8,225 nt of DNA. It comes from a virus (taxonomy: Duplodnaviria > Heunggongvirae > Uroviricota > Caudoviricetes). The number at the start of each line of letters is the position of its first letter. Positions within the stretch are counted from its first letter, which is position 1. The position numbers and the translations under genes were made by a program. Under the pieces are notes generated by a model. That model was not told where the DNA came from. It made no database searches and saw only the letters and a program-made list of their open reading frames with translations. The stretch is from the IMG/VR virus record IMGVR_UViG_2541047968_000004; one strand, written 5' to 3'. This document shows positions 1 through 6,789 of the stretch, piece after piece.

Positions 1-92
1 TCGATTGTGATGCCAAACTGTGATCGGAGATGGATGCCAAATCATGATCGATTCGAATGCCAAACTGCGATCGATTCAGATGCCATTTTGCA
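1..92. repeat. Tandem direct repeat array, ~23-24-bp unit, at least 4 copies, truncated by the window start
   Basis: Read directly: units at about 9-28 (GATGCCAAACTGTGATCGGA), 33-54 (GATGCCAAATCATGATCGATTC), 56-77 (AATGCCAAACTGCGATCGATTC) and 79-90 (GATGCCATTTTG, degenerate); bases 1-8 (tcgattgt) look like the tail of another unit. GATC occurs at 22-25, 46-49 and 69-72, i.e. 24 and 23 bp apart. The array overlaps the last ~17 codons of the 42..482 ORF. Confidence 0.6.
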
Positions 93-482
93 GTATCCCA
101 CCACGGTATAACGCAGCAGAACATTCAGGGTACCGGTCGCAGCAGCTGTCTTAATGGTGACCGTAACCAGCTCTCCATCACTCTGTGTGGTGTACGGCTC
201 CACTGGCACATATTTAGCAAAGCTGGCAGTTACTGCACCACTGTCACCAATGAGCTCATGCTTGCCAGATTTAACGCTGACGGTCGCCGTACCACCAAGA
301 CCACCTTTTGAAATCAGTTGGATCCCATTAATGCGAACGCCAGTCGGCAGTGAGAGAAGATTAATAACGGTTTCCTGTTCGGCAGCATTCACTGTAAACA
401 CACCTTCTGCCACCGACTCATTACCATGCGTACCTGAATAAACCCGCTCACTCAGTGACGGAGCAAGGATAGTCTTTGCCAT
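42..482 (-). CDS. Hypothetical protein, 146 aa; possible head-associated or decoration protein (by position only)
   Basis: ATG at 482-480 preceded by AGGAG with a 9-nt spacer (minus strand CAGGAGTCATTAATTATG). It follows the putative capsid gene and its terminator in the same orientation. The translation is rich in G/T/V/S, which suggests a beta-rich fold. No motif recognised; function is a guess from gene order. Confidence 0.55.
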   Translation of the reverse strand: MAKTILAPSLSERVYSGTHGNESVAEGVFTVNAAEQETVINLLSLPTGVRINGIQLISKGGLGGTATVSVKSGKHELIGDSGAVTASFAKYVPVEPYTTQSDGELVTVTIKTAAATGTLNVLLRYTVVGYCKMASESIAVWHSNRS

Positions 483-497
483 AATTAATGACTCCTG

Positions 498-520
498 AAA
501 AAGCCGGGCGATAACCCGGC
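498..520 (-). terminator. Putative rho-independent terminator downstream of the major capsid gene
   Basis: Minus strand reads GCCGGG-TTATCG-CCCGGC followed by TTTTT (plus-strand stem halves 503-508 and 515-520, A-run 498-502). It sits 17 nt after the capsid stop and immediately before the RBS of the 146-aa ORF. Confidence 0.55.
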
Positions 521-536
521 ATGGGGAAAGGAAAAA

Positions 537-1751
537 TCACAGCTTCACTGCGGTATCAACGGCAATAACACCGTGATCCTGCATCTTGCCGCTCTTCTCG
601 GGGAAACGGATTTTTTTCAGACCGTTGATCCAGCTGATTGCTATCTCAGTACGGTTATCCATATCCGTTTTCTTCTCAACCATGTTGAAGTGGCCGCCGC
701 CCTTCTGGCCGTACGCATTCGCCAGCGCCTGAGCCCCCAGCAGCATGGCACGGTCGATGTTGGTCTTGGCCTGCTTCTCCTCTGTGGTTGCTGCCATATC
801 GTTTTTCGATACAAGGACCTTTGAGTCCTTATAGAAACGGATCGGCATCCCCGCATACTTACGGACCAGAATATTGCGCCACATCGCACATTCGCCTTTG
901 AACAGCGGATGGTTAAACCCTTTTGAGCGGTTTACGGCACGCGTCATCATCTGGTTCCAGTCCTTGCCGGACGTGGAGGTGTACCAGTCATTCCACTGAC
1001 GCGGCGTGACGTAGAGGACGTAATACGGATCTTCGCCATACAGCTCATCACCGGACAGGCGTACCGGTTGTAACGGATGAGCCATCTCGTCAATAAACAA
1101 CGAGAGATTATCGACCAGCGCAAGAGTGAACAGGTCAGACTGGTCAATACTCTCAAAACTCGTCGCATCCCCACCGAAAAAATGACGATCATGCGTCGGC
1201 GGCAGTACGTCGTTGATCATGATTTTTTTGAATTCAGGGTGATCTGCCGTTGGCAGAATGGTGTCATCAGCAACAAAATCACCGCGGGCACCGGCAAGAT
1301 GCACTATCGCACACTGGTCCTGCAGGTCGTTAAAGTACGTACCCAGCAGCGTTCTGGCAGAGGATGCCAGGTTGAACTTCGTACGCTGCTGGCTCATACG
1401 TCCGCCCGCATCCACCAGGTGACGGCCCTGATTAATTTTCAGGGAAAAATCAGCATGGCTGAGGTCTTCACCACGGCCTTCAACGCGCTCATCCCCCATC
1501 GTCGGACGTTTAGAGAGTTTGTGCATGATGCTGAATGTCACTTCATCACCGGCCTGTTTGTTGAGGTCCGTGATTCGCACAACCGGTGCACCGGCACTGG
1601 TCTGCTTCGTGCTTTTCTTGTCAGGCGAAACTGCTTTTGGTGCATCCTGCTGTTCAGTGAGTATATTCACCATTGAGCGGTTGCGGTTGGCAGCCGTGAA
1701 AAGCGCCACCTGATACAGCTTATTCGCCTGGGCTGTTGTTACTGTGGTCAT
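537..1751 (-). CDS. Putative major capsid (coat) protein, 404 aa
   Basis: ATG at 1751-1749 preceded by AAGGAG (minus strand TAACCACTGAAGGAGTACTGACGTAATG), 22 nt after the scaffold stop. The position after portal and scaffold matches the usual terS-terL-portal-scaffold-coat order of P22-like and many lambdoid head modules. A terminator directly downstream fits a highly expressed coat gene. Identity not confirmed by any motif. Confidence 0.7.
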   Translation of the reverse strand: MTTVTTAQANKLYQVALFTAANRNRSMVNILTEQQDAPKAVSPDKKSTKQTSAGAPVVRITDLNKQAGDEVTFSIMHKLSKRPTMGDERVEGRGEDLSHADFSLKINQGRHLVDAGGRMSQQRTKFNLASSARTLLGTYFNDLQDQCAIVHLAGARGDFVADDTILPTADHPEFKKIMINDVLPPTHDRHFFGGDATSFESIDQSDLFTLALVDNLSLFIDEMAHPLQPVRLSGDELYGEDPYYVLYVTPRQWNDWYTSTSGKDWNQMMTRAVNRSKGFNHPLFKGECAMWRNILVRKYAGMPIRFYKDSKVLVSKNDMAATTEEKQAKTNIDRAMLLGAQALANAYGQKGGGHFNMVEKKTDMDNRTEIAISWINGLKKIRFPEKSGKMQDHGVIAVDTAVKL

Positions 1752-1773
1752 TACGTCAGTACTCCTTCAGTGG

Positions 1774-2781
1774 TTACCCGAGTTTTTCCAGAATCGCGTC
1801 AATTTCAGCGTCCGTCATGCCTCGCATGGCGGCTTCAATTTCGGTATGGGAAGCACCAAGTAACCGTTCAAAATTATCACCGGTTCCGACGGAAGCCGTG
1901 TTGCCAAGCTCTGACGGGGAAGCAGGCACTGCCATCTCCCGTTCAGCGGCTTTCACTTTTTCTTCCGCCGTTTTCCGGATATCCGTGTTGTCTGCCTTGT
2001 CATCAGAAGGCGGCTCACTGGCTTCACCGAAAGCGAGCTGCGTACGGCGGGCCACTTCGGCGAAACGTTCAGTGAGCGGTTTGTCTTTCCATGCGGGGTC
2101 ATTCTGGAGCTTCCCGTCGATGGATACGGCAACCGAGAAGCGATCCGGATCGGAGTTCTGCCACGTTTTCAGCACCGGCACGGCATTCATCGCATCAAGA
2201 ACCGGTGATAAATCCTCACCACCATGACCTTCTGCCTGCTGTGCTGATTGCTGAACACGGGACTGGAGATAGTTATTTTTACGGATGAGCGAAGCCACCG
2301 CGTCACCAATTTCCGGATACATCTCCCTGATACGGGCAATCTTCTCATCAGAGATTTTTTCGTTTTCCGGTAACGGTGCGGGTTTCATACCGGCCTGGTG
2401 GATCTGAGACGTCAGCAGTTCAACCAGGCGTTTTTCTTCGGCTATCTGTCCCCGAAGAAGTGCGGCTTCCTGTTCGGCCCGCTGCTTACCGGAACGTTCA
2501 GCCTCAAGGACTTCATAGGGAATGACGTGTTTACCATCGCGGGTGAGCACACCCTTCGCCTCCGGCTCCTTCACGTCCTGCGTCTGCTCAGCACTGGCAT
2601 CCGGCGTCGGTGCCGCAGTGTTATCGCCCGTCTGTGTCTGTGCTGCCTCATCCGCATGATTTTCTGTGGCGGCCTCTGTCACGCAGTCCTGTTCGTGACC
2701 GTCAATATCCACATCTCCAAGCCCTTCCAGCATTTTTTCCAGTTGTTCCGGGGTTTCTTCACCCGTAAATTCAAAATCCAT
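1774..2781 (-). CDS. Putative scaffolding protein, 335 aa
   Basis: ATG at 2781-2779 preceded by GGAG with a 6-nt spacer (minus strand GCGGAGTTATTTATG). The protein is strongly acidic (MDFEFTGEETPEQLEKMLEGLGDVDIDGHEQD...) with long E/A/K/Q-rich stretches that look helical. It sits between portal and capsid. Assignment is by composition and position only. Confidence 0.6.
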   Translation of the reverse strand: MDFEFTGEETPEQLEKMLEGLGDVDIDGHEQDCVTEAATENHADEAAQTQTGDNTAAPTPDASAEQTQDVKEPEAKGVLTRDGKHVIPYEVLEAERSGKQRAEQEAALLRGQIAEEKRLVELLTSQIHQAGMKPAPLPENEKISDEKIARIREMYPEIGDAVASLIRKNNYLQSRVQQSAQQAEGHGGEDLSPVLDAMNAVPVLKTWQNSDPDRFSVAVSIDGKLQNDPAWKDKPLTERFAEVARRTQLAFGEASEPPSDDKADNTDIRKTAEEKVKAAEREMAVPASPSELGNTASVGTGDNFERLLGASHTEIEAAMRGMTDAEIDAILEKLG

Positions 2782-2938: not shown

Positions 2939-5083
2939 TCAGAGCGGCATTTCATGCATCCGCTGTTGTAGTGTATGCAGCATCTGTTGCTGAAGAACTT
3001 CCTGCTCCTGTTCCATATTCTGTATGCCGGTAATGATTTCTGCCGTATGTGCCTGGTTAAGCGCATCCACATAACGCTGTCCCTGTGCCGCGGCGACATC
3101 CCGTTGTGCGCCAGCATTATCCCGTTGCGCAGCCGCGCGTGCCCTGGCAGCTTCTGCTTCCAGTTTAGCCACCCGGCCTGTCATTTCGCGCATCTGAAGT
3201 TCTGCCTGCTGTTGCTCCAGCGCCTGCTGTTGTGCTGCCGCTTCCTGCTCTTCCGGAGTCATCTCATCCGGTGATTTTGGCGTCCCCAGCGCCGCACGAA
3301 TACGTTCGACAAATTCCTGTTTCTGCGGCACATCCAGAAGATTAACCCACAGATCGAGCACAACAGCCTGCACCTGAGGCGGCAGCCCCTGAATAACCTC
3401 TGACATTCTCTGTGCAAGCTGTGCCTTAAACGCCGGTGTCTGCTGAACAGGAGCCAGCGCAATATGTGTATTTAACCTTGAAATATCATTGGTCAGTTCA
3501 CCATTATCACCTTCAGCATTGAGGACAATGGTCTGGCGACGCTGACGATCATCGCGATTAATCACCACCGCATGATTACGCCGCTTTTTCAGGTCATCAA
3601 GAAGATAAGCGAGCAACAGCCTTCCCACCTGCTGGCAGGCAAACTGGTAGTTATCGTTGATTTCGGCAAGGGTTGTGGCTCCCTGCTCCACCAGGTTGCT
3701 GATCGCCACGCCGGACGATGCATTTGAATCCTGCCCGAGAAATGCGGAATAAACCCCCATCGTGTCCTGGATAAGTTTTTCCGACTCCTGCATGACCTGA
3801 AACTGCTGGCTGGCAACCTGAAAATCCTGTTCAACCCGGAAAACATCAGCAACGCTTTTCTGATTTTTTCGGGCCGGATTCAGTTTAATAATGCCATCCG
3901 GACGCTCGATCTGCTCCATCAGATCGTTGTCTGACAACTGGGTGGCATCCTCGTCCATAATCACGCGTTTGGCCTGAAGCAACCACGTCAGTTTTATACG
4001 ACGAAAATTCACCTCATCCTGTGCCGGAATGGCCCGGGAAATCAGCCCGTAAGGCTCCCCGGTTTTATCCTTCCGGTATCCCCAGAAGGGAACCAGCGGG
4101 AACATCCCCTGCGGCGCACTGCAGGGGCGATCCACAATAAAGTGCGGTCCCACAAACCAGGCTTCACGAATACGACTTACCCGCCCGACTCTCACCTGCA
4201 CCCGCCCGGATGCCACAGCCACCGCATGCATCAGATTATTTTTATCAAAGGCCACCACCCGTCCATTACTGAGTTCAATCACCGGAAGACGCTCGAATGT
4301 ACGGTAATAAACCACCTGAAGCAGCACACGACGGCGTTCACGCTGAAGCCATTCGTTCTGCTGTCGATCCCATGACTGATACTCTTCCCATGCACTCATC
4401 AACGGACTGGGCTGGCCTTCAGTAACCGTGGTATCGACAAAACCACGCCAGTCATCAATGGCATAATCGATAACCTGAGCCATTCCCGGAAATGTGGCTT
4501 TTGCCTCATCGGTATCCATCCAGCGGCGGCGCATCAGCCAGCGGCAGTCACTTAAATCAGCCTCCCGGCTGAGCCAGTCCCAGAACACTTCATTCCGGCT
4601 GACAGTAGACACCTTAAACTCAGGCCCGAACGGATCGCTGTTCCGTCTGACCTCCACCCAGCTGAGCCCCGCTTTGATTTGTTCCGCATAGGCATCAGAA
4701 CGGGCTTTATTCATATTTCCAAGGCGGCAAGCATCGGCAAATTCAGCATTAATAGCTTCAGCCAGTTTTTCTGTTTCATCATCAGGATCATCTGATATCA
4801 CCAACAGATCAGTCCGCGTTTTGGCCTCCATACCCAGAACACCATCAACGGTAGGCGCGATGAGGTTATGGATGGTCATCGGCTGACCGCGATCTTTCAA
4901 CACCTGGAGAACTTCCAGTGGCAACTGGTCACCATCGTAATACGCACAGGCCTTGTTTGCGGCATCGCGCCATTTAGGCTGACTGTCAATATCAGAACAA
5001 AGCGCCTGTAACTGGCGCTGAGAAAAACGCGGCGTGGCTCCGTTGTCGTTTTTCGTCGCCATGGTATTAGTTTCATTTTTCAT
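2939..5083 (-). CDS. Portal protein, 714 aa
   Basis: Its ATG (5083-5081) overlaps the terL stop (5085-5083) as TGATG, indicating translational coupling. Size (~700 aa) and the Q/A/E-rich, probably coiled-coil C-terminal ~110 aa recall the C-terminal helical barrel of large P22-type portals. Position directly after terL supports the call. No search was run. Confidence 0.8.
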   Translation of the reverse strand: MKNETNTMATKNDNGATPRFSQRQLQALCSDIDSQPKWRDAANKACAYYDGDQLPLEVLQVLKDRGQPMTIHNLIAPTVDGVLGMEAKTRTDLLVISDDPDDETEKLAEAINAEFADACRLGNMNKARSDAYAEQIKAGLSWVEVRRNSDPFGPEFKVSTVSRNEVFWDWLSREADLSDCRWLMRRRWMDTDEAKATFPGMAQVIDYAIDDWRGFVDTTVTEGQPSPLMSAWEEYQSWDRQQNEWLQRERRRVLLQVVYYRTFERLPVIELSNGRVVAFDKNNLMHAVAVASGRVQVRVGRVSRIREAWFVGPHFIVDRPCSAPQGMFPLVPFWGYRKDKTGEPYGLISRAIPAQDEVNFRRIKLTWLLQAKRVIMDEDATQLSDNDLMEQIERPDGIIKLNPARKNQKSVADVFRVEQDFQVASQQFQVMQESEKLIQDTMGVYSAFLGQDSNASSGVAISNLVEQGATTLAEINDNYQFACQQVGRLLLAYLLDDLKKRRNHAVVINRDDRQRRQTIVLNAEGDNGELTNDISRLNTHIALAPVQQTPAFKAQLAQRMSEVIQGLPPQVQAVVLDLWVNLLDVPQKQEFVERIRAALGTPKSPDEMTPEEQEAAAQQQALEQQQAELQMREMTGRVAKLEAEAARARAAAQRDNAGAQRDVAAAQGQRYVDALNQAHTAEIITGIQNMEQEQEVLQQQMLHTLQQRMHEMPL

Positions 5084-6789
5084 CAGTGAGCCATCCAGTG
5101 TGTGGTTCTGCGTTTATCCGTTTTCTGTTTTACCCTCACCGGCATTCTGGCGCGCATCTCCTGGGCAATCATGTAGCTCATAAGCTGATCATCAAAACAG
5201 CCTTCCTGTGCATTCATGGAGCCTTTCGCGTCATAAACGTAGGTGTTCATTTCTGATAATGTGCCCGACCAGCGGATCCCCGACAGGCCGTTATTCAGCA
5301 GCGTTTTCATTCCCTCTGTCAGGACCGGTTTACTCTGGCGGGTTGTCAGCCAGCCAAGACGGGGCGTATCGTCGTCATATGCCTGGTCAAGGTGCTGTTC
5401 GTTGTAGATATAACGCGTCGGATAGAGTTCCCTGAGTTTCAGGATAACGGCATGTCCGTGATTGTTACGCTCCGGCCCCACAAACGCATTGTTGTACATA
5501 CGGCAGACCTGCGCAATGAGATGAGCGAAAAGCTCCGCATCGAGATGACCAAACCAGTGAGCCACCTGCTCACCATTACTGCATCTGATGATATCCAGCG
5601 ATGAGCGGTCTCCGTGCTCCAGCCCCTCAGCGGTATCCGCTCCGCATACATACTCTTCATCCGGATCCGGCAGCTCCCAGACCAGCAGATAATTCATCAG
5701 CGTCCGGTGCTGTTCGGCTTTATTCCCGTCACGCAGAGACTGCGCTTTGGTCTTCGTTCCTGTAACCGGTTCAATGTCATAAACAATCAGCGGTGGCGAA
5801 CAGAATGACTCTGCCTGCAGCGTGCTTTCCGCACTGAACACCCGTCGTCCTGACGTCAGAAACGCCTCCTGTGGCGTTGAGGGAAATTCCTGCTTCATTT
5901 CCTCACGCTGTTCAGTTTCCTTGCAGATGTACCAGTGTTTCTGCTCATCGGTAAGCGTGATGTTCATTGCTTTTTCAACCGCAGAAAAATACGCTGTTTT
6001 TTCCCGTGACAGCTTAAGTCCGCTTTCCGGCACTCTGGCGCTGTATTTGAGATCCTGCCACCAGGCGTAAAAATGGAATTTATAATCCTGTGGCGTCAGC
6101 GCCAGCCCTGATGCAGTGATTTCCTGTGCCCGGTTACTCATCTCGTAAAAATCGCCACCCACACCTTCAGCAGTGGATTCATCAAAAATAATGCACTCAT
6201 CAGAGACGGCATTAAGTGTACCGGTTCGCAGTTCTTTCGCCTTAGCCGGATATTTTGCGCAAATTTTGCCGTGCTCTGAGATATGCAGGCGCTGCACCGT
6301 ACCTGAACGGAATGAGGTTGCCACCTGGATACTCGAGCCGTGACCAAACAGGATATAGCCACCGCTGGCTCCGCTACGACGTTCAACGATGGTGAATGAG
6401 GCTCTCAGCCAGTCAGGAAGATGATCAAACGGTACAGCAATTTTGGTGCGGAAAATTTCACTGGCAGCCTGTTTATCCTGAGCGACAATCCCGCATTTGA
6501 GATGCGGTATGAATAATGCCTGGTCGAGAAGATAAATATCAATGGCCGTGGAAAACCCCAGCTGGCGTGCTTTCAGGATAATATTTTTATTGTGCATGCT
6601 CCGGAACAACTGGCGCTGCGCCGGTCGCATTCTGAAGGTGACCAGCTCACCTTTTTCGTTCTGTATCTTGTAGAGATGATTGAGCCGCCACCAGGGATTG
6701 CTCAGTTTAGTCATGATGAACAGACGTTGTTCGGTCCCGGTCATTTCTGACGGTTCATCACATCGCGGTTCATTCTTCCGGAATGTCAT
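5083..6789 (-). CDS. terL: Terminase large subunit, 568 aa
   Basis: Verified in the translation: deviant Walker A KARQLGFST at aa 73-81 (nt 6547-6573), which resembles the lambda gpA N-terminal P-loop KSARVGYSK as I recall it; Walker B IIFDE at aa 200-204 (nt 6178-6192); Asp-containing C-terminal segment VCGADTAEG consistent with an RNase-H-like nuclease domain. ATG at 6789 is preceded by GGGGAG (minus strand AATTCGGGGAGACTGGATG) and overlaps the upstream ORF by 20 nt. Alternative in-frame starts exist at 6744 and 6714. Confidence 0.9.
   Translation of the reverse strand: MTFRKNEPRCDEPSEMTGTEQRLFIMTKLSNPWWRLNHLYKIQNEKGELVTFRMRPAQRQLFRSMHNKNIILKARQLGFSTAIDIYLLDQALFIPHLKCGIVAQDKQAASEIFRTKIAVPFDHLPDWLRASFTIVERRSGASGGYILFGHGSSIQVATSFRSGTVQRLHISEHGKICAKYPAKAKELRTGTLNAVSDECIIFDESTAEGVGGDFYEMSNRAQEITASGLALTPQDYKFHFYAWWQDLKYSARVPESGLKLSREKTAYFSAVEKAMNITLTDEQKHWYICKETEQREEMKQEFPSTPQEAFLTSGRRVFSAESTLQAESFCSPPLIVYDIEPVTGTKTKAQSLRDGNKAEQHRTLMNYLLVWELPDPDEEYVCGADTAEGLEHGDRSSLDIIRCSNGEQVAHWFGHLDAELFAHLIAQVCRMYNNAFVGPERNNHGHAVILKLRELYPTRYIYNEQHLDQAYDDDTPRLGWLTTRQSKPVLTEGMKTLLNNGLSGIRWSGTLSEMNTYVYDAKGSMNAQEGCFDDQLMSYMIAQEMRARMPVRVKQKTDKRRTTHWMAH

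Follow-up and report, generated by a model that had tools for sequence, protein, structure and literature searches.

The first 92 bp of the 8225-bp stretch of Caudoviricetes DNA analysed here (IMG/VR record IMGVR_UViG_2541047968_000004; referred to below as the window) raise the question of what a phased array of short repeats is doing at the end of a gene inside a prophage morphogenesis cluster. The cluster encodes the small and large terminase, a P22-like portal, an N4-gp56-type capsid and a virion protein, the genes of the window lie on the minus strand, and the host prophage is 933W-like (Sepvirinae-type). An initial annotation had reported tandem repeats of ~23-24 bp with regular GATC sites, and these are real: four direct repeats of ~23 bp are located at 1-26, 25-50, 48-73 and 71-96, successive copies being 24, 23 and 23 bp apart, and Tandem Repeats Finder reports a period of 23 with 2.8 copies (score 67). 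The sequence ATGCCAAANNNNGATCG occurs three times (10-26, 34-50 and 57-73) and is absent from the remainder of the 8225 bases (0.37 expected), and three copies were found in 0 of 200 shuffles. GATC is present at 22-25, 46-49 and 69-72, i.e. three sites in 92 bp compared with 33 in the entire window. Positions 1-92 comprise three full units of ~23 bp, each with a GATC, and one cut unit.

With a probability of about 0.96, an IS21-family element of 2639 bp has inserted in the prophage and window 1-92 is the outer part of its left terminal inverted repeat, the units of the array being the predicted sites for its transposase IstA. Window position 92 corresponds to IS position 1, and the repeat copy at 71-96 represents the element tip, ending at 92 and followed at 93-99 by phage DNA that forms the target-site duplication. 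The parts of the element within the window are:

1..92, minus strand: the 92 bp at the outer edge of the left, istA-proximal terminal repeat in an ISSso4-like IS21-family element, from identity to two complete copies (loci L001 and L002)
89..92, minus strand: element tip, 5'-TGCA on the IS strand, the plus strand ending ...CA at 91-92, from the junctions in the window, L001 and L002
66..88, minus strand: unit L1 (IS 5-27), AAATGGCATCTGAATCGATCGCA, with boxes TGGCAT and CGATC, from the repeat analysis
43..65, minus strand: unit L2 (IS 28-50), GTTTGGCATTCGAATCGATCATG, from the repeat analysis
19..42, minus strand: unit L3 (IS 51-74), ATTTGGCATCCATCTCCGATCACA, from the repeat analysis
1..18, minus strand: unit L4 (IS 75-97), truncated inside its GATC by the window start, where a run of N begins

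Copies of the array and identity of the element

Positions 1-92 of the window recur with 100% identity in 1135 of 5426 complete E. coli genomes, at up to 35 places per genome (window 1-100 as query), as well as on 302 plasmids from ten genera. The features underlying the matches to window 1-100 are mutually unrelated and include vgrG, dtpD, DUF932, TPR proteins and other transposases. At two of these places, which were fetched (L001 and L002), positions 3501-3592 are 100% identical to window 1-92 and belong to complete 2639-bp copies of an element that splits host genes (DUF932, dtpD) and encodes IstA (511 aa) and IstB (251 aa). IstA of the complete copies matches the NCBIfam model NF033546 “IS21 family transposase” with 284.7 bits (cut-off 160), and IstB matches NF038214 “IS21-like element helper ATPase IstB” with 257.8 bits (cut-off 200). 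In Pfam, PF22483 (Mu-transpos_C_2) in IstA and PF01695 (IstB_IS21) in IstB score above their cut-offs, and a match of IstA to the integrase core (rve) reaches 32.1 bits, 0.5 bit under the cut-off of 32.6. IstB is named “ISSso4 family” in the RefSeq/NCBI annotation, and the ISSso4-like name of the element rests on that annotation. The many copies in unrelated contexts, together with empty sites (L003 and L004), are signs of mobility. Arrays of this kind are well understood, and the insertion sequence that carries this one is common and already annotated.

In an evenly spread sample of the plasmid matches most end at query position 92 or 93, and the element tip is therefore fixed at window 92. 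Read in the orientation of the window, the element has the form TGCGTATTCC...CCATTTTGCA, i.e. TG...CA, with the CA at window 91-92. When the junction was scanned for promoters and terminators, the IS end yielded nothing relevant.

Unit architecture of both ends and of related elements

In the complete copies the left end contains six units in the first 143 bp, spaced 22-24 bp apart, so that the array runs ~50 bp past the window, in line with the earlier expectation that it is longer than the part seen. Units L5 and L6 lie entirely outside the window, and the other end of the element carries three further units in inverted orientation. The units that the complete copies add are:

IS 75-97, istA orientation: unit L4, GTTTGGCATCACAATCGATCACG
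IS 98-119, istA orientation: unit L5, ATTTGGCATGCTTCCGATCATT
IS 120-143, istA orientation: unit L6, GATTGGCATCCTGCCAGTCACTCC
Right end, inverted orientation: three units, TATTCCGCTCTATTCGATCACGG, ATTGGCATCGAAGTCCGATCAGCG and ATTCGCATCCATTCGATCAACCG

Two boxes are conserved in each unit, TTGGCAT and CGATCA, about 11-12 bp or about one helical turn apart. Five GATC sites lie in the left units and three in the right units, so that eight of the 13 sites of the element fall in about 190 bp of its termini. A short hairpin, GTCTCCATTG...CAGTGGAGAC, was also observed inward of the left array of the window's element, upstream of istA.

The same layout is seen in relatives. Close relatives, 11 loci from one scan of representative genomes and all from Enterobacterales (Serratia, Klebsiella, Erwinia, Buttiauxella, Rahnella and Enterobacter), share 79-89% IstA identity and have an array of four, five or six units; the number of units therefore varies. 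The initial annotation had proposed to look for such variation among homologous phages, in which the array is absent; the variation is seen among the relatives of the element (4-6 units). Distant relatives on plasmids, with an IstA of 42-47% identity, likewise carry 4-6 units at ~23-bp spacing, each with two boxes of other sequence:

ISPsy14 and an ISPpu7-like element: boxes ATTCCAC and ATCCGGACAC
ISAs29: boxes ATTCCGG and GTGAACAC
IS1162: boxes TTTCGG and CGTGACCG
ISBmu3: boxes TTTCGG and GTGATCR
ISEc12: boxes AATAAC and GAGATCR

ISSso4, ISEc12, ISAs29, ISPsy14, IS1162 and ISBmu3, all with an IstA of about 510 aa, have arrays of 4-6 phased units ahead of istA, with 2-4 units at the opposite end, although the IstA of the window's element is only 42-47% identical to those outside the ISSso4-like group and the box sequences differ. 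Since the distant relatives have the same layout, it is a general property of this branch of the IS21 family. In four of them, ISEc12 (L018), ISAs29 (L019), ISBmu3 (L021) and IS1162 (L022), units of opposite orientation were noticed inward of the direct array, 100-250 bp upstream of istA. The direct and opposed transposase boxes together make up a large, imperfect palindrome immediately ahead of the gene. These inner opposed units, like the hairpin in the window's element, may be related to the regulation of istA.

The arrangement corresponds to what has been described for the family. The terminal inverted repeats of IS21 consist of multiple direct repeats (L1/L2, R1/R2) 23 bp apart, and integration by IstA requires two complete repeats (PMC10122671). 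Each repeat contains two conserved regions about one turn apart that are touched by HTH-1 and HTH-2 of IstA, and the 23-bp spacing suits a wrapped, negatively supercoiled synapse that is held by an IstA tetramer (PMC10122671). In the IS5376 synapse the catalytic subunits are located on the outer repeat and the structural subunits on the next, and the terminal CA is the dinucleotide that is cleaved in IS21-family elements (PMC10122671). By analogy with the biochemistry and structure of IS5376, the ~23-bp units of the window are predicted to be bound by IstA, with the two N-terminal HTH domains of one monomer reading both boxes of a unit. Unit L1 would then place a catalytic subunit at the CA at window 91-92, while the next unit would hold a structural subunit, and the 23-bp phasing would allow both ends to wrap into a tetrameric synaptic complex. 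The inner units are probably accessory or regulatory.

The element of the window shares with IS21 (L1-L3/R1-R2) and IS5376 (L1/L2-R1/R2) the TG...CA termini, the ~23-bp direct repeats that are inverted between the ends, the two boxes per repeat, the gene pair istA and istB, which encode a DDE transposase ending in a Mu-transposase domain and an AAA+ helper, and a short target duplication. It differs in its larger number of units, six at the left end and three at the right, where “usually at least two” repeats are described for IS21-family ends. Unlike those of IS5376, its boxes (TTGGCAT and CGATCA) are not GC-rich, each well-preserved unit includes a GATC, and IstA has 511 aa compared with about 400 aa. 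Several transposase-binding repeats per end are also present in phage Mu (L1-L3, R1-R3) and in Tn7 (TnsB sites), which likewise combine a DDE transposase with tandem HTH domains and an AAA+ target-selecting partner (MuB and TnsC, equivalent to IstB), and the likeness of IS21-family ends to those of Mu and Tn7 has been drawn before (PMC10122671). The protein families, site sequences and spacings of Mu and Tn7 are different, however, so that this is an analogy of mechanism and not one of membership.

GATC sites and Dam methylation

The GATC in the second box leads to a further reading, in which the units are IstA sites and at the same time a sensor of Dam methylation, such that binding or synapsis depends on the methylation state, for instance with a preference for hemimethylated DNA shortly after replication, and transposition is timed to the passage of the replication fork. 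We consider such a role unlikely, although several observations are in its favour. Each well-preserved unit at both ends has a GATC, with eight of the 13 sites of the element in the terminal ~190 bp, and GATC is kept in the relatives from Enterobacterales, an order that is Dam-positive. Furthermore, ISEc12, a distant IS21-family element of E. coli, has a GATC in each unit though its other box differs. Methylation may affect IstA binding, because the HTH domains contact the boxes in the major groove, the same groove that contains the N6-methyl group (PMC10122671).

On the other side, the distribution of GATC among the lineages gives a mixed picture with regard to Dam. The 11 loci of close relatives, being all from Enterobacterales, carry no information on a link to the Dam status of the host. 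ISBmu3, from Burkholderia, has a GATC in every unit, whereas ISAs29, from Aeromonas by its name, has none in its units; Burkholderia is not known to have Dam and Aeromonas is Dam-positive. Over the seven lineages compared, and these are seven only, GATC is found in the units of the ISSso4-like elements, ISEc12 and ISBmu3, and is missing from those of ISAs29, ISPsy14, the ISPpu7-like element and IS1162. Moreover, the homologous box reads GTGAACAC, GTGACCG or GTGATCR in relatives; the form GTGAnC in several of them indicates a shared motif of which GATC is one variant. No paper on a link between IS21-family elements and Dam was found in the literature searched.

A parallel is offered by IS10 and IS50, which also have GATC inside a transposase-binding end sequence in a Dam-positive host and whose transposition is favoured on hemimethylated DNA just after replication. 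There, a single GATC at the inner end or the transposase promoter is involved and the effect was shown experimentally, whereas here eight sites lie in phased repeats and are known from sequence. If a methylation sensor did operate in the units, it would represent a multi-site version of the IS10/IS50 mechanism that is undescribed for the IS21 family in the literature searched. Whether Dam could modulate the transposition of a very common enterobacterial IS through its GATC-containing boxes is a question of some interest.

Insertion into the prophage, the interrupted gene and the scaffold gap

The prophage side of the junction was defined by megablast with window 1-1800 as query against 50,697 phage records. 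Among these, 192 related records were found, from Stx-converting and related short-tailed phages (e.g. Shigella phage POCJ13, Sepvirinae), and every match begins at query position 91. E. coli prophages, with identities of up to 100%, likewise match the window only from 91. The site without the element reads GGTGGGATACTGA in two uninterrupted loci (L003 and L004), and the uninterrupted prophage sequence across it is GGTGGGATACTGATATAAACC. Comparison with this empty site places the insertion after Tyr130 (TAC), the final sense codon of the virion protein gene, and before its TGA stop, with duplication of 7 bp (GGGATAC). The IS21-family element most probably transposed into the 933W-like prophage just ahead of the stop codon, duplicating these 7 bp in the process. 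The features on the phage side and across the junction are:

93..99, no strand: GTATCCC on the plus strand (GGGATAC in gene orientation), one of the two copies of the 7-bp target-site duplication; the second copy is at L005 16243-16249, and the sequence is present once in L003
93..482, minus strand: native 130 codons of a gene for a virion structural protein (phrog_486), identical in codons and in the 130-aa product to the uninterrupted gene in the prophage of E. coli G1/2
42..92, minus strand: fortuitous 16-codon extension CKMASESIAVWHSNRS and stop, read from the IS end, from the ORF and the junction comparison

The length of the duplication varies between insertions: it is 7 bp here, 5 bp in L001, L008 and L015, and 6 bp in L002. 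Target-site duplications of the IS21 family are 4-8 bp long, a range that takes in 5, 6 and 7 bp, and that of IS5376 is 5 bp. Matching duplications are missing around two copies on a Serratia fonticola plasmid (L009 and L010), which points to recombination among copies. A target preference for GTAT beside the tip, seen in the first fetched loci, was dismissed as selection bias, because the hits had been ranked by coverage of the window's own flank.

The gene at the junction is an ORF of 146 aa at 42..482 (minus strand), which terminates inside the array, as had been noted from the start, and ends in ...VVGYCKMASESIAVWHSNRS followed by a stop. Its 16-aa tail is read from the IS end because the insertion parted the gene from its own TGA. 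In agreement with this, the PHROGs profile phrog_486 (virion structural protein) covers only residues 1-130 of the 146-aa protein; NCBIfam and Pfam searches of the protein gave no match. The 130-aa virion protein is thus intact and bears a fortuitous 16-aa tail. The earlier proposals that the array consists of protein-binding sites and is not ordinary coding sequence, and that the repeats were imposed on the end of the gene, agree well with an IS21-family terminal repeat that was inserted before a stop codon still in place at the empty sites L003 and L004. A terminator-like hairpin, CCGGCCCGCGTCATGCGGGCTTTTTT, is located directly 3' of the native stop (L005 16250-16290; L003 2950-2999), and the IS separates the gene from it. 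The orientation of istA is the same as that of the phage genes of the late operon. For annotation, the 146-aa ORF should be replaced by a 130-aa virion protein with an artefactual tail; the late operon of this prophage is interrupted by an IS, and its viability may be affected. The array adds nothing new on phage biology, its relevance being mainly one of annotation.

One public contig, scaffold KE702583.1 of GCA_000461675.1, encodes exactly this 146-aa protein, and the window is the part of the scaffold bounded by two runs of N. One of these runs, 5665 N long, adjoins window position 1 on its left (L005 10483-16147), and at its opposite end, in the region of the Rz/lysis genes, the window stops at 1235 N (L005 1023-2257). 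With N runs at both of its ends, the window is therefore one whole short-read contig of the scaffold, and the contig ends at window position 1 because the assembly of short reads was broken by the multi-copy IS. Alternatively, the N runs might represent masking instead of true scaffold gaps. Across the gap the right end of the same IS (...GAATAGAGCGGAATACGCA) is followed by GGGATAC and then by TGATATAAACC and the terminator-like hairpin. As represented in the scaffold, the insertion spans 5852 bp between the copies of the duplication, compared with 2639 bp for one copy of the IS. The interior consists of the 5665 N, so that the genome of the window itself does not show istA and istB. The longer span may reflect a badly estimated gap, two IS copies in tandem (about 5.28 kb), or a further insertion or other extra DNA.

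These features of the scaffold could be taken to mean that the junction is an assembly or scaffolding artefact, in which a contig end derived from a repeat was wrongly joined to the prophage, since the contig ends inside a multi-copy repeat at a scaffold gap and 5665 N do not fit one 2639-bp copy. Such an origin is highly improbable: the phage-IS junction at 92/93 lies inside the contig and not at its end, and the contig across the gap starts with the matching IS right end, then repeats the 7 bp perfectly and resumes the phage sequence exactly where it was interrupted. The internal position of the junction and the matching of both ends therefore argue for a real transposition and against an artefact of assembly. 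The exact phage-IS junction had no match in the collections genome_contigs, viral_contigs and metagenome_contigs.

It is hardly credible, finally, that the array belongs to the phage as iteron, partition, packaging or regulatory sites for a phage-encoded protein downstream of the head genes, as the initial annotation had proposed from the repeats, and as its position inside the morphogenesis cluster and a phasing typical of such binding sites might suggest: it is absent from all 192 related phage records and from the closest prophages, in which homology stops at the IS tip, the same 92 bp stand beside istAB in unrelated chromosomal genes and plasmids, the sites in L003 and L004 are empty, and the insertion is flanked on both sides by the duplicated target. 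Phased short repeats are also found in plasmid iterons and in P1 pac, the latter with clustered GATC as well, but these are conserved with their replicon or phage, whereas the array of the window travels with istAB as the left end of an insertion sequence.

Elsewhere in the prophage, a second cluster of short motifs was noticed in the small-terminase gene (phrog_370; ORF 6770..7621, minus strand). Seven of the ten TGCGCA palindromes of the window lie there within 180 bp (7311-7491), partly as 12-bp tandem repeats (TTTGCGCASTTT) that encode a low-complexity stretch of the SAQKNAQKSAQ type. Since the cluster is located where the pac sites of P22/Sf6-type phages lie, it is a candidate for the terminase recognition site of the 933W-like prophage, and a pac-type function is plausible.
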